Positions 9,670 through 29,482 of a stretch of 39,712 nt of DNA are shown piece after piece. Origin of the DNA: a virus (Duplodnaviria; Heunggongvirae; Uroviricota; Caudoviricetes); the IMG/VR virus record IMGVR_UViG_2778261706_000022; one strand, written 5' to 3'. A program made the position numbers and the translations under genes. Under the pieces are notes generated by a model, which was given only the letters and a program-made list of their open reading frames with translations, was not told where the DNA came from and did no database searches. How positions within the stretch are numbered: the stretch's first letter is position 1; every line of letters starts with the position of its first letter.

Positions 9670-10276
9670 TCTCTGGTCCTCCCGTTTTGCTGCCTTCACC
9701 GTTATCGTGATGCACATGACCTGAATAGGTGATCCCGGCAATAACCGCTTCGGACATCGTGAACGTCCCCTGTGATCTTCCGGTGCCGTCAATGGACACA
9801 TTGCCTTTGACATGCAGGTTCTTATCCACTGTGACATTACCGGTAAAGTGAGCCTCCGGTGTATCCACCTGAACACCTTCATCGGCGTAAATCTCCAGCG
9901 TCTTACAGGTCACAATGATCCGGCCGTTCTTTGTCAGACGTATACGGTGCCCCTCATGGTGATACACGCCGGTATCTCCGGCGGTAAGTCCGGTCGGGCG
10001 ACTGCGGCGGTCTTCCACCACAAGCACCACGGCCTGATCCCGTTGTCCGCCAGCACAGGCCAGAAAAACTTCCGCACCAGGCAGGGGGACGCTGATTTGC
10101 CCGTACTGCTGGGGGCGTTCAACGTCATCAAAGGTTTCACCATCCATACCGGTGATTTGCACATTCTGGATTTTCAGCGTGTCCGTTGTGCCGGTCAGTA
10201 CACCACGCCCGAACAGCAGACGAACACCCCGCATCACGGGGGCCAGAAGGCGGCTGATGACTTCGTCATTCATCAT
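9662..10276 (-). CDS. Baseplate assembly/spike protein V-like (Mu gp45 position)
   Basis: 204-aa ORF at the expected position and size. Confidence 0.6.
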   Translation of the reverse strand: MMNDEVISRLLAPVMRGVRLLFGRGVLTGTTDTLKIQNVQITGMDGETFDDVERPQQYGQISVPLPGAEVFLACAGGQRDQAVVLVVEDRRSRPTGLTAGDTGVYHHEGHRIRLTKNGRIIVTCKTLEIYADEGVQVDTPEAHFTGNVTVDKNLHVKGNVSIDGTGRSQGTFTMSEAVIAGITYSGHVHHDNGEGSKTGGPENG

Positions 10277-11390
10277 TGAATTTAATCCCCTGTTTTTTCA
10301 TCTGTGCCCGCACGAAGGCGTCCACGTCACCCGCATTTCCGCTTCCGCTGTTTCCCGGCTCTGCCGGAACAATAAAGCCGTCACGGGGTGCCAGAATCAG
10401 ACGGGTGGTTTCGCCGTGATTTGCATCCAGCGAAAACTCCACCTGACAGACAAGAAGATCACGCTCTTCCACTCCGGTGCGGGGAGCCGTGACAGCCGTC
10501 AGCAGGTTGATATCCCACAACTGGCCGTTCTCCCGAAACCAGTGCCGCACGGTGGCTGTCAGGCGCACAGAGCGGGCAACCGCCCGGCGCATTTCCCGGA
10601 CAGCCCTCTGGCGTGCACCGTCTGCATCAACAGCATGATCCGCCAGCACAATTTTCGGTCTGTAACGGTGGATGGCACTGTCTGTCACCGTACCAACGGG
10701 TGCGGCCAGCGTTCCGGCTGTCAGTGCATCCCCGGCATGACCACCACCACGCCCGTGCCCCCGTACACGGTATTCACTGTGGCGCAGACGGTGATCCACG
10801 TTGTGATCCAAATCCAGCAGATTTTCGCCCAGCGTCAGCGTGTCGCCACGCTGACTGCCGGCCTGAGTGAAAACCAGTTCACCGGCGGCATTACTGGTTA
10901 CCAGGACGCCTCTGTGTCTCGCGGCCCGTGTCAGCGCATCTGCCACGGTTTCTGAGTTTTCCAGTGTGAAGGTGGAAAAGGGCCGGGCTGCCGTTGCATC
11001 ATTTACCTGCCAGCGCACCGTGACCCCGAACGGAGCACACAAATCTGAAGCAATGTGCTCCAGCGTGCGGTTCCTCCACTGGCTGCCCGGATGAATGGCT
11101 GAACAGTCCACCAGGTCACCGGTTTTATCCCGTCCGCTGAGCGTGATCTGAAAACGCGTGGCGCTGATGCGCTGCCGGACCTGATCCAGCCAGCCAGTGA
11201 TCACAGGCTGACCGTCAATGCGCAATTCCAGAGACTGACCGGCACGGACGGATGACGGAAGGCGTACACCGGGCATCATTACCCCCAGTTCAAAGGAGCC
11301 CGCCAGATGTTCAAGAGAGCGACGAACACTCACCGTCAGCCAGCCGGAAAAAATCTCACCGCCCAGATACAGTTCAACCCTGCTGCTCAC
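10266..11390 (-). CDS. Baseplate hub / tail protein (Mu gp44 position)
   Basis: 374-aa ORF between the DNA-circulation-like and spike genes. Confidence 0.6.
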   Translation of the reverse strand: MSSRVELYLGGEIFSGWLTVSVRRSLEHLAGSFELGVMMPGVRLPSSVRAGQSLELRIDGQPVITGWLDQVRQRISATRFQITLSGRDKTGDLVDCSAIHPGSQWRNRTLEHIASDLCAPFGVTVRWQVNDATAARPFSTFTLENSETVADALTRAARHRGVLVTSNAAGELVFTQAGSQRGDTLTLGENLLDLDHNVDHRLRHSEYRVRGHGRGGGHAGDALTAGTLAAPVGTVTDSAIHRYRPKIVLADHAVDADGARQRAVREMRRAVARSVRLTATVRHWFRENGQLWDINLLTAVTAPRTGVEERDLLVCQVEFSLDANHGETTRLILAPRDGFIVPAEPGNSGSGNAGDVDAFVRAQMKKQGIKFNDE

Positions 11391-12723
11391 TAATCACCTC
11401 CACTGAATGGCCTCCGGGAATGAACAGCGGATCAACAATACCGTTACGGCGCACAAAACGTTGCCAGCCGGTACTGTTCCCGGTGGCACGGTACAGGGTC
11501 ACCAGTGCAGGCTCGGTGGTACGTACAGTCACTACTGTTGCACCGGGTAGCTGAACTCCCCGTGTATTCAGATCCTCTGTCAGTGCCAGTCTGGCATCAC
11601 GAAGCGTCAGCGCCGTGGCGGTATACCCCTGCCCGGACAGTGTCATCACCTGCCGTTCGAGCGCTTCGCTTAAGTCACGGTTAATGCGCTGAAGATCAAC
11701 TGAACTTTCCAGCCAGACAGGCCAGGTACGGTGGGCTGCGTCACTGTCCGGCAGGGTTTCCTGACTGAGAACCTGATCCAGCAGTTTTCCCACGGTCTGT
11801 GCCTGGGCCACCACGGCAGCACTCTGCATTACCGCCCGTATCAGACGAATATTCTTTTGTGCTGCCGGTGTCAGACCGATGAGAGTCTGCGGATTATCCT
11901 GCTCATCCAGCACGTAACGCAGGGAAGATAATGTCCTGTACAGTTGCGGCATTCCCTGAGAGAAGGCGGATGTCGTCCGGCCGATACTGCCACCGGGCCG
12001 GGTATTCAGGCCTCCTGAAGACAGTGACGGCAGCGATGGCAGGGTGATCAGGGCACTGAAAAGCCCCGCAAAAGATGAGGCCATGCGGGAAGGTGCTGTC
12101 AGTAATGCCGTGGCATTCCCTTTCAGCGCCGTGAACGTGGCAGTAAAGGCACTGATATCCTGTACAATCCCCATGCCGGAAACGGCATTTTCCAGGGCGG
12201 ACACCTTATCGCTGATGGTTTCGGTCATTGCCTGGACATCGTGCATTCCGTCAGAAATCACCGTCCAGCCCGCTTCCAGGGTTTCAAAAACCTTCCCGAG
12301 CGCGGTGGTACTCTTCTGCTCCAGAATGGCGGCCGTGTCCTGTGTGACAGCAGGTGCGGTATCATCACTTACCGGCGTGACATTAATGGTGAACTCAACC
12401 ACGCCCTGTTCAGCAGCGTTATAACGACTTTCAAAGCTGTTTATCAGCACATTTAACGTGCCGTAATCCGGGTGAAGCAGCTCCCCGGCACCGGGAGCAC
12501 GAAGGGCATCACGCAGACGATTTCGCTGTGTCTGAACATCATCCCCCATCACAAGTACACTGAACGTAAATTCAGCCAGTTTAGGTCCCAGATCGTCTGC
12601 ACCACCGGTTTCCCGTAACGGATATTCCCGACGGACAATGTTTCGCCCGCCACGTTCGCGCTGCTCACGCCAGACGAGGAACGGCACACCACGGAACGCA
12701 CCACGACCGTCACCAGAGGCCAT
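11374..12723 (-). CDS. DNA circulation protein-like tail protein (Mu gp43 position)
   Basis: N-terminal AFRGVPFLV motif. ATG at 12723 has a GGAGGG Shine-Dalgarno; the ATG at 12744 is weaker. Confidence 0.6.
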   Translation of the reverse strand: MASGDGRGAFRGVPFLVWREQRERGGRNIVRREYPLRETGGADDLGPKLAEFTFSVLVMGDDVQTQRNRLRDALRAPGAGELLHPDYGTLNVLINSFESRYNAAEQGVVEFTINVTPVSDDTAPAVTQDTAAILEQKSTTALGKVFETLEAGWTVISDGMHDVQAMTETISDKVSALENAVSGMGIVQDISAFTATFTALKGNATALLTAPSRMASSFAGLFSALITLPSLPSLSSGGLNTRPGGSIGRTTSAFSQGMPQLYRTLSSLRYVLDEQDNPQTLIGLTPAAQKNIRLIRAVMQSAAVVAQAQTVGKLLDQVLSQETLPDSDAAHRTWPVWLESSVDLQRINRDLSEALERQVMTLSGQGYTATALTLRDARLALTEDLNTRGVQLPGATVVTVRTTEPALVTLYRATGNSTGWQRFVRRNGIVDPLFIPGGHSVEVISEQQG

Positions 12724-14785
12724 AATTCCCTCCGTTCCAGACATTCACATCCAGTCCGTGACCGGACGTGTCATCAATATCAATACTGCGAGCCTGCCAC
12801 CCTTCCGGGGCAACCAGCTCCACACGGGCAGAGGCTTTTTGTACCGCCTGTCCACTGCTTTCATCATCACTGCCCCGTAATTTCTGCCAGGCTTCAGTCA
12901 GCCATCCCCCCAGATAGTTACCGAGATAGCTGCCCACCGTAGAACCAATGGCAATCCCCACAGGTCCGGCTGCCGCCCCCAGCGCACCACCGGCAATACT
13001 GCCTGCAAGAGAGCCGACCGCTTCTCCCTTGTCTGTGGCACTGGCGCTGCCATCCAGCAGAACCGGGGCTGCCATCGCGCCAGCCCACAGGGCACCTCCA
13101 CCCAGCCGGCCGGCCAGTCCACCGGCACTGCGGAAAAAGCCGGAGAAACGCCCCAGCCCCATGCGGCTACCGACAGACGAAAGTAACCCACCGGCGCGCC
13201 CCATCATGCGCCCCCAGAACCCTGCCCCACCAGAAGAGGGAGACGGTGGCACTGGGGACGGTGGCAGGGGAGGCGTGACCGGTCTTCCGCGCCCCGGTCC
13301 GCGTTTCCTGCGGCCCCGCCCCTGACGTCCGCCTGAGGATGTATCGGTCGCGCCGGTGCCGGACAGTCCTCCTGTGGGCCAGTTTGTTACAAGTACTGGC
13401 TGAACGGCTGCCGGATTTACCCCGGTAAGAAAGTTTATAAAACGTTGCCCTCGTCCCTGAGATGTGCCTGGTGGTGTTCCGGCCGGAGGAGAGCGCCGGA
13501 AAGGTGAGGTCAGGAAGGCCGCCGCTGATAATCCGTATCCCAGCAATGCAGCACCCGGACGTATAATCCCCGTTCCGACAGCCCGCGCCATTTTCAGGGC
13601 ACGGGTGGCGAGATACATGTACAGCAGGTATTTCGCGGCGGTCTGTGCCCCCTGACCAATGCGATCCAGCGCATCACCATAGCCCGCATCCCGCAGAGCC
13701 TGAAGCGTGTCGCGTACCTTTCTGATCGCCTGATAAAACCCAGTCACTGCATCACGGGCATACTCAAAGCCCTGGTTCATGGCTGATGCCGTGCTTTCCG
13801 CCAGGGAATGGTAACTGCCATCAGATTTGGCACTGTCAACCCATGAAAGAAATCCCCTGAGATTACCCTTCAGTTTTTCAAATGGCCCACTGTCCATCAC
13901 ATCCCGGGCAAACTGGTCCCAGACGTCACCCATCATGGCCGTCAGGCCACTCCAGGAATTCATTGCGTCCTTTTGTGCTCCCCTGGCCTGTTCCGCCAGC
14001 GTCTGAAATAACAGGCGAATACTGTCCGGCCCAAGCAGCCCTTTTTCACCAAGTTTTCTGACCACTTTCTGGTCCACACCCAGACGATCAGCCAGCACGC
14101 GGTAGGCATTAATGCCGTAGGTGGCAAGAATATTTGCATCCGCCGCCTGAATACTGCCTCTTGCATACATCTGTTTCAGTTGCAGGGATGCCCCCTGTGC
14201 ATCGGACAGTGACCAGCCGCCCACGGCACCCTGATCCTGAAGCATGGTGACAAAATTTCGGGCCTCCCTGTCACTCATACCAAAGCCCAGACTGGACGTA
14301 TATTCCTGCATGACGCCAGCCAGCCCCCAGGTGGTTTCCTTCGCATTCTGTATTGCCCACCTGCGGACATCATCAGTTTTCGCCCGATCCCCTTTGTAAA
14401 GGGAGTTCAGGCGAATCATATAGGTTTCCATCTCCGCTGCCGGGCGAATAAATCCCCGGTTAAAGCCATATACAGCAGCACCACCGGCCAGCATTCCGTA
14501 AAGATTGCTGATCCGCCCGATGGTGCCGGTAATACTGCCCTGAAGACGGTCAAAATCAGAAGTGACATGGCGGATACTGCCCCGCACCCCGGCCAGCGTG
14601 CGCTGCATCCTGCTTCCGAGTACATCTGTTTCCTGCCCGGCACGGCGGGCAGCATTTCCCAGGCCACCCAGCCCCGCCTGGCCGGAGCGTGAGAATGCCC
14701 CCAGCTCCTGTGACCACTGGCGGGATTTGGCTGAGATATTGCCGAGCAAATCAACTATCAGAGATGCTCTGAGATTTCGGGCCAT
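12710..14785 (-). CDS. Tail tape measure protein
   Basis: 691-aa ORF with Gly/Ala-rich hydrophobic segments and a Pro-rich tract, immediately downstream of the tube/chaperone genes. Confidence 0.75.
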   Translation of the reverse strand: MARNLRASLIVDLLGNISAKSRQWSQELGAFSRSGQAGLGGLGNAARRAGQETDVLGSRMQRTLAGVRGSIRHVTSDFDRLQGSITGTIGRISNLYGMLAGGAAVYGFNRGFIRPAAEMETYMIRLNSLYKGDRAKTDDVRRWAIQNAKETTWGLAGVMQEYTSSLGFGMSDREARNFVTMLQDQGAVGGWSLSDAQGASLQLKQMYARGSIQAADANILATYGINAYRVLADRLGVDQKVVRKLGEKGLLGPDSIRLLFQTLAEQARGAQKDAMNSWSGLTAMMGDVWDQFARDVMDSGPFEKLKGNLRGFLSWVDSAKSDGSYHSLAESTASAMNQGFEYARDAVTGFYQAIRKVRDTLQALRDAGYGDALDRIGQGAQTAAKYLLYMYLATRALKMARAVGTGIIRPGAALLGYGLSAAAFLTSPFRRSPPAGTPPGTSQGRGQRFINFLTGVNPAAVQPVLVTNWPTGGLSGTGATDTSSGGRQGRGRRKRGPGRGRPVTPPLPPSPVPPSPSSGGAGFWGRMMGRAGGLLSSVGSRMGLGRFSGFFRSAGGLAGRLGGGALWAGAMAAPVLLDGSASATDKGEAVGSLAGSIAGGALGAAAGPVGIAIGSTVGSYLGNYLGGWLTEAWQKLRGSDDESSGQAVQKASARVELVAPEGWQARSIDIDDTSGHGLDVNVWNGGNYGLW

Positions 14786-14911
14786 ACTTACTGCTTCGTT
14801 CTGATGATTTTTTCTGTCTGTCGGCAGTGCCGGTAAAGTTGCGACAGGGGGAGGTTAAGCGCCCATTCCGGACCGCTTTTTGTCACCATCCCCAGGATAA
14901 TTGCCGCTTCT

Positions 14912-15406
14912 TCAATCTGATCCCGACACTGCGCCTGATCGCCCCCGGTCAGCTGCCAGCTTTCCGGCAAGCGCGGTATCCAGCAGGCTGACCGCTGCCA
15001 TCAGGCGGGAGAGATCGCGCTCGCTTAACTGTCCAATCTGACGGGGTGACAACGGACCTTCAATGTCTCCCACTGCGGCAATCTGACGGCGCAGCAGTGC
15101 AACACCGCGTAACGACGGAGACGCTATCAGCATCGGGCCATTGTTTGTCTCCACCACGCGCTCGGCTTCTGCTTCTGCGTCAATACTGTCTTTCGCTGTC
15201 AGTTCCCGGAACGTGACACGATATTCACGGGTCTCACCAAACGGCAGACCATCAAGCAGATCCACATATCCCTTTGCCAGTTGCTCTGTCAGCCCGGCAG
15301 TGCGTGGATCAGCCCCCTCAAGTGCTTCCCGGATTGCCTCCATCACGGCTGCCTCGGAAACTGCCGTTTTTTTCTTACGTGTGGTCATTTTATTTTTCCT
15401 GATCAC
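14912..15406 (-). CDS. Tail assembly chaperone-like protein (Mu gp41 position)
   Basis: 164-aa ORF between the tube and tape-measure genes. The next frame is open from 14970 to 14788, so a frameshift extension is possible. Confidence 0.5.
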   Translation of the reverse strand: MIRKNKMTTRKKKTAVSEAAVMEAIREALEGADPRTAGLTEQLAKGYVDLLDGLPFGETREYRVTFRELTAKDSIDAEAEAERVVETNNGPMLIASPSLRGVALLRRQIAAVGDIEGPLSPRQIGQLSERDLSRLMAAVSLLDTALAGKLAADRGRSGAVSGSD

Positions 15407-15768
15407 TGAACACGGGTACTGGAGGCGCTGGCGAACTTCACGGAGATCTCCCCGCCACCGTCAAGCGAGGCCGGTTCACTGCTCCAGGCCTTCGTCATCA
15501 TGTGGACTTCGCCGGTATCCGCCACAAACTCGATAGTGACCGCAGTCCAGTTGTTGATTTCATCGGCGGCTGGTGAACCTTCTCCGCCTGCCGGAAATTT
15601 GCAGTCCAGCGTCGCTTCACGTGGTTTCTGGCGGTAACCATAGACTTTCGCGCCTTTCACCACTTCACGTTCAAAACCAGACGGAGAAAATGTAGCCCCC
15701 TCAAGCGTCTCGTATTCCTGACCGTTCACACGGATAGTGGCCGTACCCTGATACTGTTTTCCGCTCAT
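15403..15768 (-). CDS. Tail tube protein
   Basis: 121-aa ORF directly downstream of the sheath gene. Confidence 0.7.
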   Translation of the reverse strand: MSGKQYQGTATIRVNGQEYETLEGATFSPSGFEREVVKGAKVYGYRQKPREATLDCKFPAGGEGSPAADEINNWTAVTIEFVADTGEVHMMTKAWSSEPASLDGGGEISVKFASASSTRVQ

Positions 15769-15776
15769 GCCTTACC

Positions 15777-17279
15777 TCACAAAATGAAACGGATCTGTGC
15801 TGCCAGGAAGCGGAACTGGTTAACCAGATCCGGCGTGCATAACACGTCAAGACGGTTTCGATCTGACGCATTACGCTCCACAAGCAGATTCTTTTTAAAG
15901 GTGTCCAGATTTTCGACCAGCCCGAGTTCCACCCACTCTTCACCCAGCGAAATTAACTGAAGCTTCATGATCTCCGGCGTCACGATATTCTGACCGGCAC
16001 GAACGGGCGTCCCGTCATCAGCCAGTTTATGGCGCGGAAAACGTTGTGTGATAAAAGTACGCAGGGAATAACGCAGCCAGGAGAGGGTGTAGATGGTTTC
16101 CACATCCAGATAGCTGGGATCACTTTCGCCGTACACGTTCTGGCGATACATGGTCACCTGACGTTCGATCTGAACCACATCACCGGCAGCCACACTGACC
16201 GTGGCAATCCCTCCCCACAGCAGACTGTTACGCTCTTCACGCGTCAGACGATCGGCCGGAGCCGGGGCCATGCGTGACGGAAGCGCCAGCGTCTGAAGCG
16301 GACGCGCAGGATCTGCTCCCAGAGAGGGTGCACAGGTGGCACAGACCGCCGCTGCCCAGAGGTAATCCGGTTCAGGGGCTTTGGGAATGGATGTGCAGGT
16401 CGCCAGAAAATCATTGCGTTTTGCCCCGAATGCCTGCACCTCACCAAACGTGCCGGTATGTGCCAGCCACAGCACGCCGTCAGACATTTTGGCCGGTCCC
16501 CAGCGTTTCAGAAGCTCATCACTGATGATTTTCAGGTTTGCATCATCCTTATAGGGCATGACGACATAGTTGTACTGGCGATCGCCCATACCCGCCACGC
16601 TTCGGGTGATATCCGGGTTAGCCGCTTTTTGTTTCGGATAGGCTATAGCGACCTGTATTCCTTCCGGGGTTGCTTCCCCGTCGTGATAGTTCAGGCGCAC
16701 ATCATGAACGGAGCATTCACCGGTAAAGCGGGCGGTGATCCCCAGAGACCCTTTCAGACCTGCGCCATTATCACCACTTCCTGCACCAGAGGAGGCCGTG
16801 AAGGGCGCGTCAGGATCGGCATTGATCAGCGCGGCCAGCTCGTCGGTCAGTTCTTTGCCTTTCTTACCTTTTGGTGCCGGGAGTGTATAACGCCGCCCCC
16901 CCACGCAGGCATAAACAATCCCGTCACGGGTGACCGTTCCGGTCAGATTCATGGCCGCAGCCGTTGCCTGTCCGGTGCCGTTCCCCTGAGCAATGGCATA
17001 CAGTTCAGCATCAGGATTGATGGCGATAAATTCCGCCACCATCAGGGCAATCATGGAGCCGCGCCCCCAGAGTTCTGTTGCCTGAGACGCACGGGTGATC
17101 CTGACCGGAACATCCAGAACACCGGCACCGTCCACGGCATTCTCTTTCATTCTCGCCTGACCAAACAGCAGCACACACTGACGCTGTGCCGGAGTGCCGG
17201 TGACAGCCATGGAGTTATTAAACTCAACCTCAATCAGCGGTATACGGCGGTCATTACCGATCCCGTCAAAATTAATCAT
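15777..17279 (-). CDS. Contractile tail sheath protein
   Basis: 500-aa ORF upstream of the tube gene; size and position match Mu L. Confidence 0.75.
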   Translation of the reverse strand: MINFDGIGNDRRIPLIEVEFNNSMAVTGTPAQRQCVLLFGQARMKENAVDGAGVLDVPVRITRASQATELWGRGSMIALMVAEFIAINPDAELYAIAQGNGTGQATAAAMNLTGTVTRDGIVYACVGGRRYTLPAPKGKKGKELTDELAALINADPDAPFTASSGAGSGDNGAGLKGSLGITARFTGECSVHDVRLNYHDGEATPEGIQVAIAYPKQKAANPDITRSVAGMGDRQYNYVVMPYKDDANLKIISDELLKRWGPAKMSDGVLWLAHTGTFGEVQAFGAKRNDFLATCTSIPKAPEPDYLWAAAVCATCAPSLGADPARPLQTLALPSRMAPAPADRLTREERNSLLWGGIATVSVAAGDVVQIERQVTMYRQNVYGESDPSYLDVETIYTLSWLRYSLRTFITQRFPRHKLADDGTPVRAGQNIVTPEIMKLQLISLGEEWVELGLVENLDTFKKNLLVERNASDRNRLDVLCTPDLVNQFRFLAAQIRFIL

Positions 17280-17521
17280 TGCGGTTTCTCCTTATCGGAT
17301 GCCGGTTGGGCGACCGGTTTTTCTGTCGCAGTCGTTGCATCCGCAGATACAGCCGGAGCCTCTTCAGCGGCTTTTTCAGCCTGAATGACATCGCCGTCAT
17401 CAAGACGCCGACACCAGAACGGCGTAAAGGGCTTTTCCTCCCCCTCCTGTGCCAGCGGGCGCATTGTGTCGGGATCACGAATCAGGCGTCCCGGCGCGGG
17501 TTTGATAAAGATGGTTTTCAT
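17276..17521 (-). CDS. Hypothetical head-tail module protein (Mu gp38 position)
   Basis: 81-aa ORF coupled to the sheath gene. Confidence 0.45.
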   Translation of the reverse strand: MKTIFIKPAPGRLIRDPDTMRPLAQEGEEKPFTPFWCRRLDDGDVIQAEKAAEEAPAVSADATTATEKPVAQPASDKEKPQ

Positions 17522-18082
17522 TTACAGTTCCTCCGGCGGTTCGACCGCCGTTGTCGTGTTCCCCGGCAAATCAATATGTGCCTCAAACGGCGGCGTACCG
17601 GGCGGCTCCACAAAGGTTTCGTAATGACGCAGGAAGTCGTCCAGCGAGCTGGTATCGGTCAGCGGTGCGATCATTTCCTCGCAGGAGAAATAAAGCGCAT
17701 ACATCACCGCACCACTGTCCGCCTGGGTTTCGGTGTAACCGTTGACCGCCTTTTCAAAGTAAAGCGGTGAGGTTTTTTCTGTTCTGAAGCCGTTAAGCAC
17801 GGCAATCAGCCGGGCCACAATCTGATACAGTCCGGGACGGCTGGCCTCACGCCCGTTGAGCATGTCGCCGATGACGTAGAACACCCAGTGACTGACCAGG
17901 CGACCACGGGTACGGCCTTCACCGGCACCCAGCCAGGCAACGTAGATCGCCGGGGCGTTAATCAGCATGGTGCGCAGTACGCTGTCGCTCCAGTCGCCGG
18001 GATGCGTGTCAACAGACACCAGTTCATTCCCGAAATACTCACGGATACGGGCGATGTATGCCTGTTCGGTTTCCGTAATCAT
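17522..18082 (-). CDS. Head-tail joining protein (Mu gp37 position)
   Basis: 186-aa ORF in the head-tail connector block. Confidence 0.5.
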   Translation of the reverse strand: MITETEQAYIARIREYFGNELVSVDTHPGDWSDSVLRTMLINAPAIYVAWLGAGEGRTRGRLVSHWVFYVIGDMLNGREASRPGLYQIVARLIAVLNGFRTEKTSPLYFEKAVNGYTETQADSGAVMYALYFSCEEMIAPLTDTSSLDDFLRHYETFVEPPGTPPFEAHIDLPGNTTTAVEPPEEL

Positions 18083-18498
18083 ATGAAGCCCTTCTGGTTG
18101 CGCCCGAATACCGCTGCATCAGACTGAACCTGTGGTAAATCCCCGGATTCAGGGGCCGCACCGTTCGTATCCACACCGACCGGCACATTGCCGTTCATGA
18201 CATCTTTCAGCCAGGCCAGCGCTTCACGGTAACGGTCACGCGCCTGATCGGAGGCTCGCTGATCGCACAGGTAATAAAAGGCAATCGCGCAACAGTGCTG
18301 AACAAGAACGGCCGGAATAACCTCCAGCGGCAACGTGTAACGGGCGGACAGATAGCTGTCGATAAGGGCTGACGCATCTGTCAGCGCCCGGTTCAGCTTG
18401 CGCGTGTCCGGCTCATCCGAACGGGGCACAGCCAGTAACGGCCTGAGCAAATCCTCGCGGTAACGCGCCCGCATATCGGTTTCAGTGGCGTAATTCAT
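18079..18498 (-). CDS. Head-tail connector protein (Mu gp36 position)
   Basis: 139-aa ORF coupled to the upstream gene (ATG overlaps its stop). Confidence 0.5.
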   Translation of the reverse strand: MNYATETDMRARYREDLLRPLLAVPRSDEPDTRKLNRALTDASALIDSYLSARYTLPLEVIPAVLVQHCCAIAFYYLCDQRASDQARDRYREALAWLKDVMNGNVPVGVDTNGAAPESGDLPQVQSDAAVFGRNQKGFI

Positions 18499-18899
18499 GC
18501 ACGGGCCTGTTCCGCTTTGTTACCGGTCTTTTTCCGGGGAGCATCCTGTCCGGCTTCGGCTTCGGCTTCGGCTTCGGCTTCGGCTTCGGCTTCGGCTTCG
18601 GCTTCGGCTTCGGCTTCGGCTAAATCTGTACCGGCCACTGCATGAACCACACCCGCCACGCTCCCCGCATCATCAGCAGACGTCTGTAGTATTCGCACAG
18701 TGAGGCATGGCTCCTCCTCCAGTCGGGCAAGCTGCTCCGGGGTGACCTCAACCTGCTGACGTCCACGCGTGAACAGGAACCCCGCACGACGAAACGCCGA
18801 ACGACTGCAACGCACTTCTGCCAGCACCGTGACAGAATTGTCACCACTGACCTGAAGACCTGAATCATCTGTTGCTGCCACAGTGTGATGTTCATTCAT
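18495..18899 (-). CDS. Hypothetical head-module protein containing an (Glu-Ala)12 repeat
   Basis: GGAGGG Shine-Dalgarno 6 nt before the ATG; stop overlaps the next gene's start. A perfect GCTTCG hexamer array encodes AEAEAE... Confidence 0.55.
   Translation of the reverse strand: MNEHHTVAATDDSGLQVSGDNSVTVLAEVRCSRSAFRRAGFLFTRGRQQVEVTPEQLARLEEEPCLTVRILQTSADDAGSVAGVVHAVAGTDLAEAEAEAEAEAEAEAEAEAEAEAGQDAPRKKTGNKAEQARA
18552..18620. repeat. Perfect tandem hexanucleotide repeat (GGCTTC/GCTTCG) x ~11.5
   Basis: Uninterrupted 69-bp array read directly from the sequence. In-frame in the minus-strand ORF, giving (EA)n. Confidence 0.95.
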
Positions 18900-18942
18900 A
18901 TTTGCCCTCCGCAGGGGCCGGGCCGTAAGCCCGGCTCACCGT

Positions 18943-19890
18943 TTACAGATAATCCGCGACAACCAGCTCCAGCTTACCCTTCATCTCGTTAGAGACGGTT
19001 GCGTTTCCGTCTGCGAACAGTTCACGCTCCAGCAGCTGCACCGCCTGTTTTTCCAGCGAGGTGGGGACAACAATATGGGTGGGTTTAATGCCGAGTTTGC
19101 GGCCACCGTCAGCGGTAAATTCGCGCATGGCTGACCAGCCGTGCCACAGTGCATCCAGCGTCAGCGGTGACTGCATCATGTAGGCCATCTGCCAGAAGCC
19201 GTAGCCCACATTGCGACGGGCGGATGCACCAAACACAAATTCGTTATCGGTGAATGCGCGACCTTCATCGACTTTGGTCTGGGCAACCAGTTCAGCCTTA
19301 CGGCGATCCTGATAAATCAGCGGTTTTACCGCGCGGGAGCAGTCAAGCAGATACCAGGCCGGACCGCTGTAATCAGCCTGTGCGCCGACAGAGCCGGTTT
19401 TTGCCACAAACATATTGCTGACCATCTGCGCATCCCCGGAGCCATCCACTTTGGGGTAAACCGGATGTTCGGTATCAAAGAAGTTCTGACCGTCATAGCA
19501 GGCCGCACTGATCCCGTCACGCAGGGCAGCAAAGACCAGCTCATCCGGTTGTACCGCCGCAGCGCGCCCCATCTCCTGGAACAACGGGGAATAAATACCG
19601 AGGTTGTCGTCTTCGAAGTCATCGCGGCTAATGGCGACAGTGCCTTCAAAAGTTTTGTTCACGATGGCATAGCCATAGGCTTTCATCTTCTCGATGACGC
19701 GGGAGCCGATCCACTCACGGAACTGCGGGAACTGCCCCAGCCAGCCGTAGGTGTTGGATTTCGATGTGGAGGGCACGGTCATCGCAATTTTTTTATACTG
19801 CGACGGGGCCATGGACATCCCGGCCTGAAAATCAGAACGGTAGCCCGTCATCAGGGCTGTGATCATCGCCGGTGTAATCGGGGTAGGCAT
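18943..19890 (-). CDS. Major capsid protein (Mu T-like)
   Basis: 315-aa ORF directly downstream of the protease/scaffold gene. Confidence 0.7.
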   Translation of the reverse strand: MPTPITPAMITALMTGYRSDFQAGMSMAPSQYKKIAMTVPSTSKSNTYGWLGQFPQFREWIGSRVIEKMKAYGYAIVNKTFEGTVAISRDDFEDDNLGIYSPLFQEMGRAAAVQPDELVFAALRDGISAACYDGQNFFDTEHPVYPKVDGSGDAQMVSNMFVAKTGSVGAQADYSGPAWYLLDCSRAVKPLIYQDRRKAELVAQTKVDEGRAFTDNEFVFGASARRNVGYGFWQMAYMMQSPLTLDALWHGWSAMREFTADGGRKLGIKPTHIVVPTSLEKQAVQLLERELFADGNATVSNEMKGKLELVVADYL

Positions 19891-21014
19891 TATTGCATTT
19901 CCTCTTTCATTTTCAGGAACTCGGCTTCGGTTTTACCCAGCAGTTTGGCGGCCGCGATATCTTCAGCCGACAGCGCAGCGGTGGCAGTCTTTTTATCCGG
20001 CACGGTCACGGTGTCGGTCTGAAGAGAGGTCAGGGCCGCAACCGGCTGGCGGGCGTCAAGCTGTGCAGAAAGTGCCGCAACGCCAATCTGCCCGCCCAGT
20101 TGTTCCAGATAGCCGCGTTCGCTTTTGAAGATGCGCCCTTCGGATTCAGCCTTGTCCAGCACCTGCTCCAGCGTGGTGCTGCCGTGCTGCGCCGACAGCG
20201 CAACGTATTCGGTACGCAGGGCGTTATACGTTTCAACGGGCACGTATTTCGTCAGATCAATAATGCCGCCAGCCGGTGTGCCTTTTGCGGTTTCCAGCTC
20301 TGCCGACAGACTGGCGACCTGTGTTTTCAGGTTGTCGTGTGCATCCGCACGGGTTTTGATCCCGGTGAGGGCAGACAGCGCCGCCGTGCCCAGCTCCGGC
20401 GTAAATTCGTCACCGTCAGCCACGGTCAGACCGAGCGCCGTCAGCAACTGGCGTAATTGCTCATTCATGGAGGTATCCTTTAAAGGAGGGTTTAAGGCGT
20501 TATAAAGGTCATCCGCCGACAGCGCGGCGACAGGATTCATGCCGGTCAGACCGGGGTCACCGGTAATAGCCAGCATCCGAAGTTCGACAGGTTCGCCGGT
20601 GTTCTCGTCATAGCCAATCACCGGTGAAAACCAGGGGAATTCGTTATTACGCAGATGTTCAAGGGCCGGAGGGTTCCACTTCGGGCGCACCTCGAAGCCA
20701 CGCTCTTCACTGAAGCGAAAATTCTCCGGTGAGGCCATCACAAAACCGGCAGCCGGTGCCTGATGCCCCTTAATCAGGGTCTGGTGGTTGTAGTCAATTT
20801 TCACCGGCTGATTGAGCGCCACAACCCGGGATACCATGCGCTCAACGGTCGCACGGTTAATCAGCCAGCCCTCGGCCGGTTTTTCCGGGCGACCGTCACG
20901 GGCCTTTACCCGACCGGCTGGCATGATCTGACACCAGTCACCGTCCCCGTCTGCGGACAGGCTGATGGCATTCAGAATGGCATAAGCAAGTTTGGGCGTG
21001 TTTTTCGTCTTCAT
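19890..21014 (-). CDS. Head maturation protease / scaffold protein (Mu I/Z-like)
   Basis: 374-aa ORF with an Ala/Glu-rich coiled-coil C-terminal region, upstream of the capsid gene. Confidence 0.65.
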   Translation of the reverse strand: MKTKNTPKLAYAILNAISLSADGDGDWCQIMPAGRVKARDGRPEKPAEGWLINRATVERMVSRVVALNQPVKIDYNHQTLIKGHQAPAAGFVMASPENFRFSEERGFEVRPKWNPPALEHLRNNEFPWFSPVIGYDENTGEPVELRMLAITGDPGLTGMNPVAALSADDLYNALNPPLKDTSMNEQLRQLLTALGLTVADGDEFTPELGTAALSALTGIKTRADAHDNLKTQVASLSAELETAKGTPAGGIIDLTKYVPVETYNALRTEYVALSAQHGSTTLEQVLDKAESEGRIFKSERGYLEQLGGQIGVAALSAQLDARQPVAALTSLQTDTVTVPDKKTATAALSAEDIAAAKLLGKTEAEFLKMKEEMQ

Positions 21015-21160
21015 TCCGGCAGCATAAGCCGGGAATTTTCAGGGCGGGTTTTGCGGGATTTCAGGAAGTGCTTCCAGGGGAAAAATACAAAGGCGCTTCA
21101 CGCAGATTTTAAAGCCCGTTAAATACAGGTTAGAAAATCACGACACGCGCCTGAAGGGGG

Positions 21161-21185
21161 TAAGGTAATGCATTTGCATACCTTA
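21161..21185. promoter_or_regulatory. Palindrome in the central G-I intergenic region
   Basis: TAAGGTAATGCATTTGCATACCTTA: near-perfect dyad in the 176-bp gap between the virion-morphogenesis and protease genes. Confidence 0.4.
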
Positions 21186-21190
21186 AACAA

Positions 21191-21664
21191 TTAAGGCGTT
21201 TCTGTGGCCTTTTTAAAGCGTTTTCTGATTTCGTCCATGATCTCCTGCTCTGCCACCTGATCAAAGCCCATATACGGGCGTGCGCCAATGGCCGCCGGTC
21301 CCGGTGGCATACCAGGCAGGCCACCCCACTGATGAATGGCCGCATAAGGCTCATTTGATCCAATCAGCGCCCAGGTATCGCCATAATCCGTGGTCAGGCG
21401 TCGGGCCAGATCGCCGTTCAGCGTCAGGATTTTGCCGGGCATGTATCCCTTACGGGTACGCCACTTGCGGTAAGGAGCTGACCAGTCATGCCAGCGTTCG
21501 CCGTCCGGCTCTTTTTCCTGTTCAAACGCCATTTCTGACGATGACAGAAGACTCGCCGCCACACTGCGGGCCAGGTCTTTCCCTCCACCCACAAACTGAA
21601 GCCGGGCAAAGACCCGCTGGAGACGCGTAACGTCAACAACGACAGCGGCATCAATGGATGACAT
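21191..21664 (-). CDS. Virion morphogenesis protein (Mu G-like)
   Basis: 157-aa ORF at the position and size of Mu G. Confidence 0.6.
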   Translation of the reverse strand: MSSIDAAVVVDVTRLQRVFARLQFVGGGKDLARSVAASLLSSSEMAFEQEKEPDGERWHDWSAPYRKWRTRKGYMPGKILTLNGDLARRLTTDYGDTWALIGSNEPYAAIHQWGGLPGMPPGPAAIGARPYMGFDQVAEQEIMDEIRKRFKKATETP

Positions 21665-21785
21665 ATTGCCTCCGCATAAAGGATGAATATAAAATAAACA
21701 GGCGGTCAGTGTACGCTTAACTGGTAAAGTCGGTGCCTGCCTCCGGGTGGATCATGTATGCGGGTTCAACCCCCGCCACTGACCG

Positions 21786-23117
21786 TTAATCAATATCTCC
21801 TTCCAGTACCTCAAGCATTCCACCCCGGATATCCGATTTCAGCTTATCCATATTGATAACCCGGTAAGCATTCACAATCACATCCAGTTTATCCGGCTGA
21901 CGCTTCAGGCTGTACGGCGCATTAACGGCAATCTGCACACTGCTATCCTTACTTTCCACGATATACATCAGATTGTTGTGGCGTTTGTCCCACAGCACCG
22001 CTTTTGGCTTTGCCAGCATTGCCGGTAATCGACCGAAATCCTCCGGCGTCAGGGCGATACCGTCATTCTGATGTTTCATGCTGTCCGCATGGAGCACATT
22101 TTTACCGCTCATCGCCAGCAGGCGGGCCGGTGGCGTTCCCGTCCGGCTTTCCACCGCCTGCGCAATGCTTTCGGTCATAAAGCCCAGCGTGCGGATATCG
22201 TTACCGCCTCGCCGGGTTTTCATGATGTTTTTTGCCCAGATGCGGAACGCCAGCTGCCGCTCCGGGCTGTTGTTCATCTCCTGCACTACCATTTCCCGCA
22301 GCGCCGGGCTTTTCACCTCGATCAGTTTACGGATCAACGCCTGGTCTGTGCCGAACGCCGCCGAGCCGGGGTTATATGACCAGCCCACATCCGGTGTCAT
22401 GGTTCTGGTGCCATCTGAATATGTGGTCACCGGCATTTCTCTGACTTCTCCGGTCTGCTTATCCACGCCAGCCTCAACATTGCGGGTGGAAAGATGATCC
22501 TGACCGGATGAAACGGATAACCCCATTGCATCCAGACGGGTCTGAGACAATGGCCGGACACGGCAGCGGCAGTTCCAGCCATTGGGTGGGTAGTGTGTAT
22601 TCCAGAACGGATCGTCATAGCGGAATACCTGCCCGTTAAGGGCGGAATGCGCCGGGCGGGTGCGGCTGTCCATCACCGCCACATACTGCCAGAACGGATG
22701 CGTGTCCGTGTTGTTCATCATCTGCGTGTAACGCCCGGCATTGTAAGCCACGCGGGTGTTCACGTTGTAAATCAGCGCCAGACGGCGGGGACTGCCCAGT
22801 TGCACTTCTTCTGCGTTACCGGCGCTGTCCACCACAATCTGCTTTCCCCACCATCCCAGCTTTTGCAGGCGGGGTGTCAGTGTGCGGATAAATGCTTTCT
22901 GTGAAATCCCCTCATCAACAGCACGCTGCACTTCCGCCTGTAGTGTGGTCAGTACGTCCAGGCGTGCCACTTTTGCCGCCGTGAATGAACGGGCATGAAC
23001 ATCCGCGTCTGTTTCGAACCAGTTCCAGCTGATATGCGCCCCTTTGGCGCGGAAGTATGCCACCGCCTCTTTTGAGGGAAGCGTGGCGGCATAACCTAAA
23101 TCAATCCCCTGTGCCAT
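21786..23117 (-). CDS. Head morphogenesis protein (Mu F-like)
   Basis: 443-aa ORF directly downstream of the portal gene. Confidence 0.65.
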   Translation of the reverse strand: MAQGIDLGYAATLPSKEAVAYFRAKGAHISWNWFETDADVHARSFTAAKVARLDVLTTLQAEVQRAVDEGISQKAFIRTLTPRLQKLGWWGKQIVVDSAGNAEEVQLGSPRRLALIYNVNTRVAYNAGRYTQMMNNTDTHPFWQYVAVMDSRTRPAHSALNGQVFRYDDPFWNTHYPPNGWNCRCRVRPLSQTRLDAMGLSVSSGQDHLSTRNVEAGVDKQTGEVREMPVTTYSDGTRTMTPDVGWSYNPGSAAFGTDQALIRKLIEVKSPALREMVVQEMNNSPERQLAFRIWAKNIMKTRRGGNDIRTLGFMTESIAQAVESRTGTPPARLLAMSGKNVLHADSMKHQNDGIALTPEDFGRLPAMLAKPKAVLWDKRHNNLMYIVESKDSSVQIAVNAPYSLKRQPDKLDVIVNAYRVINMDKLKSDIRGGMLEVLEGDID

Positions 23118-24699
23118 CCAGCATCCCCTTCATTTCCGCAGCAAACATGGCATCACTGAGCAGCGTCATCAGGCGGGAATCATCCATTTCACGGTAAAGG
23201 GCAGGCAGGTCTGCCAGTGCCTCCGCCAGCCCCCGCGTTCTGATGGCTTCAATGACCGGCTCCAGTACCGGGTCGATGGCCTCCTGTAACCGGCGGGCAG
23301 GCACCGCATCCCCCATGTCGTCCAGTTCATCTCGGGGGCTGCTCTTCGCTTCCGGCAGTCTGGCAGCCAGCGCTGTCTGCTCTGTCTTCTCCTGTTTTTC
23401 CGGTGGCATCTCTTTGTCTGTCTGAGCAGGTTCATTGCCACTCTGACGGACACGGAAGATGGCTTCACCGGGGGCAGGCTGTGGAATACCGGTCTGCTCC
23501 CGCACCCAGGGATCAGGAATATCCATCCCCGTACTGAGCTGCATCACCGCACTGGTGATTTTGGTGATATCCCCCGGCTCTTTTGTCTGGAAACAGATAC
23601 GCGGCAGGCGACGGATATCAATGGCGTGGGCGGTGTTCAGGGCATACAGCGGATACACCAGATCGCGGTTCAGCGTGGCGGCCAGCTGACGTAAATCAGA
23701 ATCCCTGATTTCCCGGCGCACCTCGTTATGCACTTCACCCAGCGAACGTGCGCCCTTGTCTCCGGCTTCCGTGGTCAGCGTGCCGCCGAGGATAGCTTTG
23801 GAGATGGAACGCTCCCCCCACGAAATCATGGTTTCAAACGGATCGGCCTGACCGTTCGCTGCCGCCTGAAACTCCAGCGACATCCCGGCCGGGATGATCC
23901 CGCCTGTACGTCGCCCGATATCCATCACCGCCCGCATCAGGGCGCTTTTCTGCTCCGGTGTTGCCCCGGACGGGTATTTACCGACCTTCATCGGCAGGCC
24001 GTACACCTCCAGAAATTCAGCCAGATCGCGCACGGAATAGTTTTTGAAAATGAACGGCCAGATAAGCGTTCTGACAAGCCCCGTCGCACCACCGTAGCCA
24101 GTGCGTGAACGCGACTGATGCACTATCCAGCCAAAGGGCTGAAACGCCACCCCGGCATGGCTGCCGTCACGCAGCCGCAGTTCGCTCAAATCATCCGGGT
24201 TAAGGCAGAAATGCCCGCTGTCACGCCAGCGGATGGCGCGGATGATGTGCATTTTACCGAGCATCCCGTGCTCAATCTCCATACAGGAATAGCCCTTCAG
24301 GATGGCATCGGTGGCATCAAACAGCATGGCATCAAACCAGTCGGCGGAATGCAGATATTCGTCGAGCATTTCCGCGTCCTTTTTCTCATTCGCGCTGGCG
24401 TTCGGGGGCGGCTCAATACTCCAGGACACCCCCTGAATGGCAAGGCGTCGCTTGCCCAGCTCTGCAAAAAGGTGGGTATCCTTTTCTTCAATGTCAGCGG
24501 CCAGATCGGACTGGGCAATCAGATCGCCACGTTCAGCTCCGCGAAGGCACTGTGCCGCCCGGTTCGGGGTGATACCCGAGGCCGGATGTTCAATATAACG
24601 GCTGGCAATCTGCGGAATATCCAGCACGGCACTCTGCATCTCCGGGTCAAAGGAGAAAGGTTTTCCGTCAAGATCAATTATGCGTCCCACTACCAGCAC
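23101..24699 (-). CDS. Portal protein (Mu H-like)
   Basis: 532-aa ORF downstream of and overlapping the large terminase gene. Confidence 0.7.
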   Translation of the reverse strand: MLVVGRIIDLDGKPFSFDPEMQSAVLDIPQIASRYIEHPASGITPNRAAQCLRGAERGDLIAQSDLAADIEEKDTHLFAELGKRRLAIQGVSWSIEPPPNASANEKKDAEMLDEYLHSADWFDAMLFDATDAILKGYSCMEIEHGMLGKMHIIRAIRWRDSGHFCLNPDDLSELRLRDGSHAGVAFQPFGWIVHQSRSRTGYGGATGLVRTLIWPFIFKNYSVRDLAEFLEVYGLPMKVGKYPSGATPEQKSALMRAVMDIGRRTGGIIPAGMSLEFQAAANGQADPFETMISWGERSISKAILGGTLTTEAGDKGARSLGEVHNEVRREIRDSDLRQLAATLNRDLVYPLYALNTAHAIDIRRLPRICFQTKEPGDITKITSAVMQLSTGMDIPDPWVREQTGIPQPAPGEAIFRVRQSGNEPAQTDKEMPPEKQEKTEQTALAARLPEAKSSPRDELDDMGDAVPARRLQEAIDPVLEPVIEAIRTRGLAEALADLPALYREMDDSRLMTLLSDAMFAAEMKGMLDGTGD

Positions 24700-26354
24700 C
24701 CCCGATCAAATTCATGATATGCCTCATCGTCATCACGATAACCGCCCTCCATTGCCCGCGACCGCTCCGGCAGCGCCTGACAGGCTGATTCATCCAGGAT
24801 GAAGCCCTCCATGTATGACGCCCGGTTTGCCATACAGAGCGCCACGGCAAAATCACCATGGCGGCGGGCGTTCACAGCCGTTGCGTTCTGGTCCTTCGTA
24901 CGCCCCTTGTCGATTTGCGGGATACCGTTCACCACCTTCACATGGCGCAAATCATCAAGCGTGGTCTGATGGCGGGCGACGAGGATATTCTGATCCTCAA
25001 ACTCGGCCTTCAGTTTTGGCATCCACTCGCCATACCACTTCGGCGATAACATCACGCAGTCGATGATGTCCGGGCCAAAGGCCAGCAGCGCGGCTTCGGC
25101 CAGATAGCCGCCGTTACCGGTGGCGTCGAACGCCGCACCGACCAGCGCCGGAACGCGGGTCAGGATGTACATCATCACCTGCTCCTGCTGGGCATACGGC
25201 AGGTTGCGCAGCTCCACGCGAAACACCTCGCGTTTTGCCAGGGATTCAGTGATTTCCAGCAGCACAAAGCAGGACAGGTCTCCGGTGCGGGCAAAGTCTT
25301 CCCCGAAGCTGAAGCGGGAACGGGGATTTAACGCCTCTAAAAGCGGTTTTAAATGTTCTTCACACCAGGTTAAAACCTCCGATTCACGCAGCCATGCGGC
25401 ACGGCTGATGAAGTCGTCCGGGGCTTCAAACGTCAGAATCGGGATGTCGCGGATCATCGCCATTTCAATAAGCGCGTGAGGAATATAGGCACCGCCGGAT
25501 TTTTTCGGGATACAGCCGTATTCCTCGTCGGCATCCTCACGGGTCGGGGCGTTTTTGTAGAGATCATCACGCCACTTCTGCTCGCTTTCCGGTGACCATT
25601 CGCGGCCGGTGACATAACAGATACGACGGTACAGCCCGTCCGCAATGGCATCATCCAGGGTAATGCGGTGGACGCTGTAATCCTTGCGCCCCTCGCGGGC
25701 TTCCTGAATGTACTGATTAAACAGATTATCGACGCCGTTATGCGTGGAGATAATACGCACGCGCGCGCCCCACATGGTAAGCGCCATTGCCGCCTTGAGA
25801 AGCTCATCCAGTGACTCGTGGAACGCGGCTTCATCAATCACCACATCCCCCTGAAGGCCGCGCAGGTTTGACGGACGGGAAGACAGTGCCTGAATTTTGA
25901 ATCCACTGTTCGGAAAGCGGATCATGTAGGTCAGAATTTCTTCTTTTTTATCCCGATCCCAGAAGGTCTGCTCATACACATCAGCATCTGCCAGCTGGTT
26001 AAAGGCACGGGAGAACAGTGCGCAGGCAGAAATATATTCCAGCGCCATCTCCTGCTTTGACCCCACATAAAACACATTGCGGCCACCACGCCGCTTCGGT
26101 TTTGCAGCGGTAATGACGTTACGCCCGGCTTCCGCCCAGGTAAGCCCGGTGCGGCGGGATTTTTCCGCGATGCAGACCTCGCTTTCATCCTCAAACCAGC
26201 GGGCCTGATAATCCAGAAACACCGGCATATCACCGGGCAAATCAAGGCTGTCCGGCACATCCACGCCCAGCAGGGCTTTTTCACCGGCCAGATCAATTTT
26301 GCGGGTGGAGACGGTATTCGTCAGTAAGGGTGAGAGTTCTTCGGCGTTATTCAT
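24690..26354 (-). CDS. Terminase large subunit
   Basis: 554-aa ORF between the small-subunit-like and portal genes. Confidence 0.75.
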   Translation of the reverse strand: MNNAEELSPLLTNTVSTRKIDLAGEKALLGVDVPDSLDLPGDMPVFLDYQARWFEDESEVCIAEKSRRTGLTWAEAGRNVITAAKPKRRGGRNVFYVGSKQEMALEYISACALFSRAFNQLADADVYEQTFWDRDKKEEILTYMIRFPNSGFKIQALSSRPSNLRGLQGDVVIDEAAFHESLDELLKAAMALTMWGARVRIISTHNGVDNLFNQYIQEAREGRKDYSVHRITLDDAIADGLYRRICYVTGREWSPESEQKWRDDLYKNAPTREDADEEYGCIPKKSGGAYIPHALIEMAMIRDIPILTFEAPDDFISRAAWLRESEVLTWCEEHLKPLLEALNPRSRFSFGEDFARTGDLSCFVLLEITESLAKREVFRVELRNLPYAQQEQVMMYILTRVPALVGAAFDATGNGGYLAEAALLAFGPDIIDCVMLSPKWYGEWMPKLKAEFEDQNILVARHQTTLDDLRHVKVVNGIPQIDKGRTKDQNATAVNARRHGDFAVALCMANRASYMEGFILDESACQALPERSRAMEGGYRDDDEAYHEFDRGCW

Positions 26355-26935
26355 CAGGCTTTACCCAACAGAATCCCCTTAATACGGGACTCAAGCTGTT
26401 CACTCATCCCGTCCACGCCGCGCAGCTCGTCGGTGACCGCGTTTGCCATCTCTTCAGCAAATGCGGCCCGGATTTCTTTTTCACGCTTAATGCTGCGCTC
26501 GGCGGCACTTTCCGCACGCTGTGCTGACAGGAGGATGTCTTTGATGAGGCGCATATCCACGTCGCTGTCGCTGTTCAGAGATTCGGTCGCGGCACGCAGG
26601 CGGCGGTACATCAGGGCGCGGGACATTTCCAGAATCAGCGCTGTGGTTTCACCGGTTGGCTTGTCCCCCAGTTCGGCCATCATGGCTTTTGTCTGCTCGC
26701 GTAAATCACGCAGGTTACGGGCAATCAGCTCATTACGGGAGGCTTCCCGGCTGATGGCCGCCGGTGAAAGCTGCTGCTCTTCCGGCAGGCCCGCCTCTCG
26801 GATCAGACGGTTGATTTCCTCGCGGATCTGGACCTGCGTCAGACGTTTTTCACGCAGCATTTCCAGCAGCGGCTTACGGATGCTGTCGGGGAGCAAATCC
26901 ACCTTGCGTACACGACCACGCGTCGGCTTGTCCAT
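26354..26935 (-). CDS. Terminase small subunit-like protein (Mu gp27 position)
   Basis: 193-aa helical, charged protein immediately upstream of the large terminase. Confidence 0.55.
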   Translation of the reverse strand: MDKPTRGRVRKVDLLPDSIRKPLLEMLREKRLTQVQIREEINRLIREAGLPEEQQLSPAAISREASRNELIARNLRDLREQTKAMMAELGDKPTGETTALILEMSRALMYRRLRAATESLNSDSDVDMRLIKDILLSAQRAESAAERSIKREKEIRAAFAEEMANAVTDELRGVDGMSEQLESRIKGILLGKA

Positions 26936-26937
26936 CG

Positions 26938-27741: not shown

Positions 27742-27750
27742 ACCTTTTCC

Positions 27751-28916: not shown

Positions 28917-28918
28917 TG

Positions 28919-28954: not shown

Positions 28955-28987
28955 CGGTGAAGGAAAGGCGGCAGGCTTTGCGGAATA

Positions 28988-29413: not shown

Positions 29414-29482
29414 ATCAGCCTCCGGTTCTCGCGTTCCCGGTAAGTTTAAAATAAAAATCCCGCGTTGTGGCGGGATTTGGGG

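Follow-up and report, generated by a model that had tools for sequence, protein, structure and literature searches.

The window, by which we mean the whole 39,712-nucleotide stretch of DNA analysed here, carries a gene for a gp35 homologue between the genes for a major head subunit and a head-tail adaptor, and this gene contains a long and perfect hexanucleotide array (Table 1). Its product matches Pfam FluMu_N (PF17891) over residues 36-72 at 35.1 bits (gathering cutoff 25.8; gp35 of phage Mu itself scores 40.8 bits), phrog_3622 with an E-value of 2e-78 and PDB entry 2OUT (FluMu gp35/HI1506) with a phmmer E-value of 1.6e-4, and identical loci in RefSeq are named ‘HI1506-related protein’. The preliminary description of this DNA had placed a well-supported gene between capsid and connector genes, and the matches to FluMu_N, phrog_3622 and 2OUT, together with gpT and gp36 as flanks, bear this out. 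The order gpT, gp35, gp36, gp37 is common to the window and to Mu; beyond gp36 lie gp37, a DUF2635 gene and the tail sheath gene, and beyond gpT lie the gpI protease, gpG and MuF. Elsewhere the window encodes the transposition proteins MuA and MuB, a Mu portal, a tape measure, a DNA circularisation protein and a baseplate J protein. The stop codon of gp35 and the start codon of gp36 overlap as ATGA at 18495..18498, and this overlap, the GGAGGG site and the presence in phage Mu of its own gp35, a true distant homologue, in the same position fit normal expression of the gene. In the cryo-EM structure of Mu, gp36 is the adaptor (PMC11915804). Mu_35 carries the annotation label ‘head-to-tail connector complex protein’, for which we found no underlying data.

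Table 1. Features at and around the hexanucleotide array, with coordinates in the window.
Feature	Position	Strand	Description and basis
Major head subunit gpT, upstream neighbour	18943..19890	-	Pfam Mu-like_gpT, E 6.6e-119
Shine-Dalgarno GGAGGG	18905..18910	-	5 nt upstream of the start codon (ATG) of gp35; read from the sequence
gp35 gene, Mu-like prophage of Sp18 type	18495..18899	-	134 aa, ‘HI1506-related protein’; ORF, Pfam, PHROG and PDB matches; homologue of Sakai ECs_4975
Predicted folded N-terminal FluMu_N domain, RRAG motif	18681..18833	-	about residues 23-73; AF2, Foldseek and family alignment
EHC-5 forward primer site, ATACTACAGACGTCTGCTGATGA	18670..18692	-	exact single match in the window
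Perfect hexanucleotide array	18551..18621	-	11.83 copies of CGGCTT (+ strand); coding strand GAAGCC/GCCGAA
Basic C-terminal tail, GQDAPRKKTGNKAEQARA, plus stop codon	18495..18551	-	translation; conserved in relatives; pLDDT <50
EHC-5 reverse primer site, CCGCTTTGTTACCGGTCTTTTTC	18512..18534	+	exact single match in the window
Head-tail adaptor gp36, downstream neighbour	18079..18498	-	Pfam Phage_Mu_Gp36, E 3.5e-35; phrog_195 head-tail adaptor

Tandem Repeats Finder reports the array with a period of 6, 11.8 copies, 100% matches and 0 indels; it scores 142, and no other array in the window scores above 56. A direct scan for perfect period-6 runs returns 71 bp at this site; the longest such run elsewhere in the window is 14 bp, and when the window was shuffled 200 times, the longest run averaged 13.4 bp and reached 18 bp at most. 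The array encodes residues 94-116 of gp35, AEAEAEAEAEAEAEAEAEAEAEA, which can be written A(EA)11 and comprises 12 Ala and 11 Glu. These codons occupy 18552..18620, a total of 69 bp, and the periodicity of the DNA takes in one more base at either end, which brings the run to 71 bp. The 69-bp uninterrupted hexanucleotide array of the preliminary description is thus confirmed as 23 codons within a slightly longer perfect run. Its reading of the tract as (Glu-Ala)12 holds for the Glu-Ala repeat and fails for the count, the actual tract being about half a dipeptide shorter, and the interval 18495-18899 given there is right for the gene and wrong for the repeat, which has the narrower limits listed in Table 1.

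We examined where the repeat falls in the predicted protein. An AF2 model built with a 13-sequence alignment has block-mean pLDDT values of 87-94 over residues 21-70, with 45 residues at or above 90, and pLDDT below 50 over residues 79-134, which make up the linker, the AE tract and the basic tail. The AE tract, part of the C-terminal tail, is predicted to be disordered and to lie outside the confidently folded domain. A single-sequence AF2 model (pLDDT 54) draws the tract as a low-confidence helix, whereas pLDDT in the model built with the alignment falls below 50 at these residues; we therefore take from the models only that the tract lies outside the confidently folded part. When the gp35 model was searched against the PDB with Foldseek, the top match was 2OUT (probability 1.00, E 2.6e-3); nothing else was matched at E ≤0.1, and no virion protein was among the matches. 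In the family alignment, positions R38, A39 and G40 vary little or not at all. A head decoration or cement role for gp35 is unsupported, 2OUT being the sole Foldseek match and the Mu capsid having no cement proteins (PMC11915804).

The same family alignment reveals a difference in architecture beyond the N-terminal domain. Mu gp35, an Edwardsiella homologue and others have a helical domain of about 50 residues at the C-terminus (LNTRIRA...PKV.AVS..LG), and at this position the EHEC lineage has (AE)n followed by a basic tail of 18-21 residues, the gene ending at the start of gp36. Judged from its sequence, the window's gp35 is a member of the FluMu_N family by its N-terminal domain and a truncated architectural variant without the second domain, and Sp18-type gp35 has thus lost what Mu gp35/HI1506 carry as their second domain. 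Because that domain is absent, the AE tract is a spacer rather than an inter-domain linker. An acidic EA linker of varying length had been proposed: the varying acidic tract stands, and the linker between domains does not, as the tract joins the folded domain to an 18-residue basic tail. Two scans of species-representative genomes, aimed at relatives in other species, yielded little, the first being swamped by the AEAEAEAE pattern and confirming no relative, and the second returning a single distant match, in a metagenome-assembled Elusimicrobiaceae genome.

The array turns out to be a locus that is already in use for strain typing. Both primers of the MLVA locus EHC-5, as printed in the S5 Table of a 2023 MLVA paper (PMC10062581), match the window exactly and uniquely, and they converge around the array with a predicted amplicon of 181 bp (18512..18692); the primers of the 17 other loci in the same scheme have no match in the window. 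The array is therefore the already-known variable-number tandem repeat (VNTR) of EHC-5, a marker for fingerprinting enterohaemorrhagic E. coli (EHEC). The scheme that includes it is used by Japanese public institutes for serogroups O157, O26 and O111 (PMC10062581), and that paper credits its origin to Izumiya et al. 2010. EHC-5 was scored 0, meaning no amplicon, in most O157 clades; the quartiles of its repeat number were 0, 2 and 10 in clade 3 and 0, 0 and 7 in clade 12, and PCR typing of O157 isolates found several alleles, with single strains listed at 7, 10 and 11 repeats (PMC10062581). Absence from most clades and variability in the rest is what one would expect if the VNTR travels with a mobile Mu-like prophage. 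Our literature searches on HI1506 and on a VNTR in Sp18 found nothing.

To place the window's allele among others, we searched 5,426 complete E. coli genomes with a 1.8-kb query comprising the gpT-gp35-gp36 segment, which is present in 234 of them. Among matches that are 100% identical to the query, the spans differ by multiples of 6 bp. Alleles were checked at the sequence level in 13-14 loci fetched from complete genomes, O157 Sakai included, and the copy numbers found were 1.83 units (L009 and L011, where the protein reads ‘LAEAG’), 2.83 (L008), 5.83 (L004), 6.83 (L003 and L012), 8.83 (Sakai, L044), 13.83 (L005), 14.83 (L006), 15.83 (L007), 18.83 (L002) and 20.83 (L001). One further array, in L010, is interrupted, its approximately 17.8 units including 14.33 perfect units and two variants that read Glu-Val. 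All uninterrupted alleles have the immediate flanks cctgtc|...|aaatct in common, and the open reading frame is intact in every allele whose sequence was checked. In 10 of 10 full-length expanded alleles (2.83-20.83 units) the N-terminus is the same and the basic tail is the same or nearly identical, so the expectation that six-base units keep the frame holds in all ten of these alleles from complete E. coli genomes.

A wider view of the allele spectrum comes from span lengths. We took 60 evenly spaced records from the 229 that matched, assigning each allele from length alone and allowing for a 9-bp KKA insertion; the 57 full-length matches in this sample fit at least 16 alleles, from about 2 to 19 units. 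The window's own allele of 11.83 copies is shared by at least ten complete genomes (H16-H25, span 1812). In two cattle strains from one series, 121 and 119, the prophage occupies an identical chromosomal coordinate, and the stretches of 813 and 819 bp fetched around the array from these strains differ by a single unit and match otherwise; the change is therefore recent. IMG/VR contigs contain alleles of 1.83-16.83 units in two sequence backgrounds, in which the N-terminal part of gp35 is 98-100% and about 86% identical, respectively, and the presence of expanded alleles in both means that expansion occurred more than once. The basic tail is conserved in all relatives, some of which have the KKA insertion variant. 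This comparison of copy number across related prophages, which the preliminary description had suggested, thus finds lengths that differ rather than one number throughout, and its forecast of a likely polymorphic site is confirmed by the identity with EHC-5 and by the range of 1.83-20.83 units on conserved flanks.

Taken together, these observations make it very probable that the array is a hypermutable and always in-frame VNTR in gp35 of Sp18-like prophages, the same as EHC-5, that is prone to slippage and close to neutral in its effects. Units come and go one or several at a time while the flanks stay unchanged, which yields alleles of 2 to 21 units. The mutational process would be replication slippage, as is suggested by stepwise alleles on identical flanks. 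We also assessed whether DNA structure could drive the process. Single-stranded folding of the array is weaker than that of shuffled sequences for both strands (z = +3.1 and +2.6), and we reject hairpin-driven slippage on this ground; as the array has no hairpin potential, simple misalignment is sufficient, and structure-driven slippage is unsupported. The presence of ‘LAEAG’ in the linker of Mu gp35, together with the existence of 1.83-unit alleles, points to expansion of the array from this pre-existing motif.

At the protein level, a change in unit number alters the length of the acidic (Ala-Glu)n spacer between the FluMu_N domain and the basic end, and nothing more. Since each unit is two codons long, no frameshift should be possible, and gp35 would remain intact with its ATGA overlap with gp36 preserved. 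Because a two-codon unit cannot shift the frame, the repeat is probably tolerated and its length variation neutral or nearly so, a reading on which the arrays themselves are silent, as perfect repeats carry no synonymous or nonsynonymous signal of neutrality. The Sp18 prophage, which has a multi-unit allele, is predicted to be intact and its DNA is efficiently packaged, although mitomycin C does not induce it (PMC2669165), and such an allele is therefore compatible with a working phage.

The main alternative to near-neutral slippage is that the tract is an adaptive, tunable spacer. Under this explanation the length of (Ala-Glu)n would determine how far the basic tail extends from the folded domain, or its charge relative to it, and selection would maintain the mutable tract as a graded, in-frame ‘contingency’ trait that diversifies some property of the virion or of assembly. 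In its favour, the array is long and perfect in many lineages, expansion has recurred in two backgrounds, and the basic end of gp35, to which the spacer leads, is conserved. In addition, the FluMu_N proteins P0086 and P0094 have independently swapped the C-terminal domain for charged low-complexity tails with basic ends, suggesting that a tail of this kind has some use. The allele spectrum, however, is broad and flat, running from 2 to 21 units without a preferred length, and alleles of 1.83 units are frequent and occur alongside long ones, both of which speak against this explanation. The tract itself is predicted to be disordered, and gp35 is the least conserved of gpT, gp35 and gp36; in the divergent loci its N-terminal part is about 86% identical, versus 96-98% for gpT and 94-97% for gp36, which is consistent with weak constraint on gp35.

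What is known of gp35 in Mu points the same way. No essential gene defined by amber mutants is known between T and J on the classical Mu genetic map. The cryo-EM structure of the Mu virion, whose capsid is built without cement proteins, does not resolve gp35 (PMC11915804). Weighing both sides, we consider selection for an adjustable tract unlikely. The more specific proposal, in which the tract is a heritable and rapidly adjustable spacer that tunes the reach of the tail, for example to packaged DNA or to the portal or adaptor, and thereby gives a population of Sp18-like phages graded variation in assembly or stability, seems to us very unlikely. If it held, a gene for phage morphogenesis would contain the in-frame counterpart of a contingency locus.

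A different possibility is that the array is real and that misassembly or sequencing error has produced its copy number, either here in the window or in some of the database entries. Assemblies certainly have difficulty here. Many E. coli proteins from draft genomes that are recorded as ‘partial’ break off within the AE tract (P0054, a cluster of 82 members, P0062, P0063 and P0069), and two IMG/VR contigs, L017 and L020, end within the array. The array had been singled out beforehand as a likely site of assembly error, and for short-read assemblies these truncated proteins and broken contigs show that it is one. Variation in copy number is nevertheless present in complete genomes and is borne out independently by the PCR fragment sizes obtained in routine MLVA, so that an artefact is ruled out for copy-number variation as such. 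For the exact count in the window, error is unlikely given that at least ten complete genomes have the same 11.83-copy allele. Overall we regard an artefactual origin as highly improbable. It is worth noting for genome analysis, all the same, that short-read assemblies break or miscount at the array and yield ‘partial’ gp35 proteins.

Least probable of all, and in our judgement very improbable, is a role at the level of nucleic acid, whether as a structured element or protein-binding site that influences transcription, translation or the coupling with gp36, or through an antisense (Arg-Leu)n reading frame: the repeat does lie 57 nt upstream of the gp36 start and a 68-aa ORF (18497..18703, + strand) does span it, but each strand of the array has a less stable fold than its shuffled versions, the ORF lies wholly inside a well-supported gene and follows the repeat in length, and the common 1.83-unit alleles mean that no repeat-dependent element is required. 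We set this antisense ORF aside as an unsupported by-product of the repeat.

We return, then, to what is probably a slippage-prone VNTR of little consequence for the phage. Its practical value exists already, as the repeat serves as a marker in Japanese surveillance fingerprinting of EHEC O157, O26 and O111. In biological terms the array is a clear case of a microsatellite that an operon for phage morphogenesis tolerates, and this tolerance is plausibly explained by the two-codon unit combined with a position in a tail that is predicted to be disordered. A new question would arise only if the length of the tract affects phage fitness, a prospect to which we attach very little weight; the array behaves as any coding microsatellite does, and the feature is already known rather than new.

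Among known systems, the closest relative of the window is prophage Sp18 of O157 Sakai, to which window positions 681..39121 align at 95.6-99.0% identity. The Sakai protein ECs_4975 is identical to the window's gp35 outside the tract, with 8.83 units and 128 aa versus 11.83 units and 134 aa in the window. The two prophages differ in location, Sp18 being inserted in sorM and the window's prophage adjoining an MFS sugar-transporter gene, and also at the immunity end of the window (39122..39712), which does not align to Sp18.

At a greater distance, Mu gp35 and HI1506 (2OUT) share with the window's gp35 the FluMu_N domain, the RRAG motif and the place between gpT and gp36. HI1506 is said, in the 2OUT study, to have the same C-terminal helical domain as Mu gp35. 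A tblastn comparison of the window's gp35 with Mu gives 55.6% identity over 36 aa (E 2e-4) at the same gene position, and the aligned part of Mu gene 35 shows no evident tandem repeat in its DNA. The ‘LAEAG’ in the linker of Mu gp35 is the sequence also found in the 1.83-unit E. coli alleles, whereas the helical domain of about 50 residues that follows in Mu is replaced in the window by (AE)n and the basic tail. The decoration protein of phage JBD30 is a Soc-like beta-tadpole.

The contingency loci of phase-variable genes in Haemophilus and Neisseria likewise consist of short coding tandem repeats whose copy number changes often. Those loci switch genes ON and OFF, whereas an array with a 6-bp unit never shifts the frame and changes length alone; with such a unit inside the open reading frame and all full-length checked alleles in frame, we reject a phase-variation switch for gp35. 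Against EHC-5 itself there is no essential difference to report: the array in the window is the same locus, represented here by an allele of 11.83 units.

Over window 18079..19890, the N-terminal part of gp35 is only ~85-88% identical between the window and the divergent group of compared loci (L025-L039), against 96-98% for gpT, which encodes the major head protein, and 94-97% for the adaptor gene gp36. Judged by these identities, gp35 is the fastest-diverging, or else a recombined, gene among the three. The repeat array that encodes its Ala-Glu (AE) tract is also a breakpoint of short-read assemblies, with the tract forming the end point of many 'partial' gp35 proteins from draft genomes (P0054, P0062, P0063 and P0069) and two IMG/VR contigs (L017 and L020) terminating inside the array.

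Variant repeat units are present in P0001, giving AEAEAEAEAEAGAGAGAG. Separately, in one E. coli gp35 allele (P0071) the same DNA repeat is read in another frame as (Lys-Pro)3, a stretch flanked by compensating indels ('...SVAVWWFMQPAGTKPKPKPDEGYSRKKT...'). At the locus of this allele (L014), MuF and gp35 lie only ~1.1 kb apart with no gene called in between. Apparently, then, gpG, gpI and gpT are absent, and this is probably a degraded prophage. Domain architecture is variable across the FluMu_N family: two N-domains stand in tandem in P0092 and P0096, low-complexity tails rich in Ala, Lys and Glu replace the C-terminal helical domain in P0086 and P0094, and residues 1-41 of gp35 are fused in P0085 to a Mu Gp48-like stretch (30.7 bits, which falls short of the Pfam cutoff of 37.4), a fusion that probably comes from a deletion derivative.

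Features of the window and of a compared locus, with their coordinates
Feature	Location	Strand	Context
GC-rich hairpin	window 18913..18941	minus	between gpT stop and gp35 start
679-aa ORF	window 2928..4967	minus	near right end of prophage
(Lys-Pro)3 gp35 allele, P0071	L014:1501-1860		GCA_026134135.1, contig JAOWMW010000006.1

The hairpin upstream of gp35 (GCCGGGC-UUAC-GGCCCGGC, -23.6 kcal/mol) lacks a U-tract and is not clearly better than shuffled sequences (z -1.7; 14/200 shuffles as good). Its position matches that of a terminator predicted between T and gene 35 in the Mu genome annotation.

Three stretches of the window (39122..39712, 30000..30176 and 30813..31482) have no alignment to Sp18, the Mu-like prophage of E. 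coli O157:H7 Sakai, and the remaining prophage is 95.6-99.0% identical to it. A repressor-side ORF begins within the first of these stretches, so the immunity region is probably unlike that of Sp18. The 679-aa ORF, which combines a SASA domain (sialate O-acetylesterase type) with DUF6645 in one protein, appears to be cargo and not part of the Mu core gene set; by position and length its Sakai counterpart is ECs_4993 ('hypothetical protein'). Alignment to Sp18 starts at window ~681, close to where a truncated MFS sugar-transporter ORF (1..702) ends. Whereas Sp18 interrupts sorM in Sakai, the window prophage adjoins this transporter ORF, and the insertion sites therefore differ, a difference that a Mu-like phage would be expected to show because it transposes.
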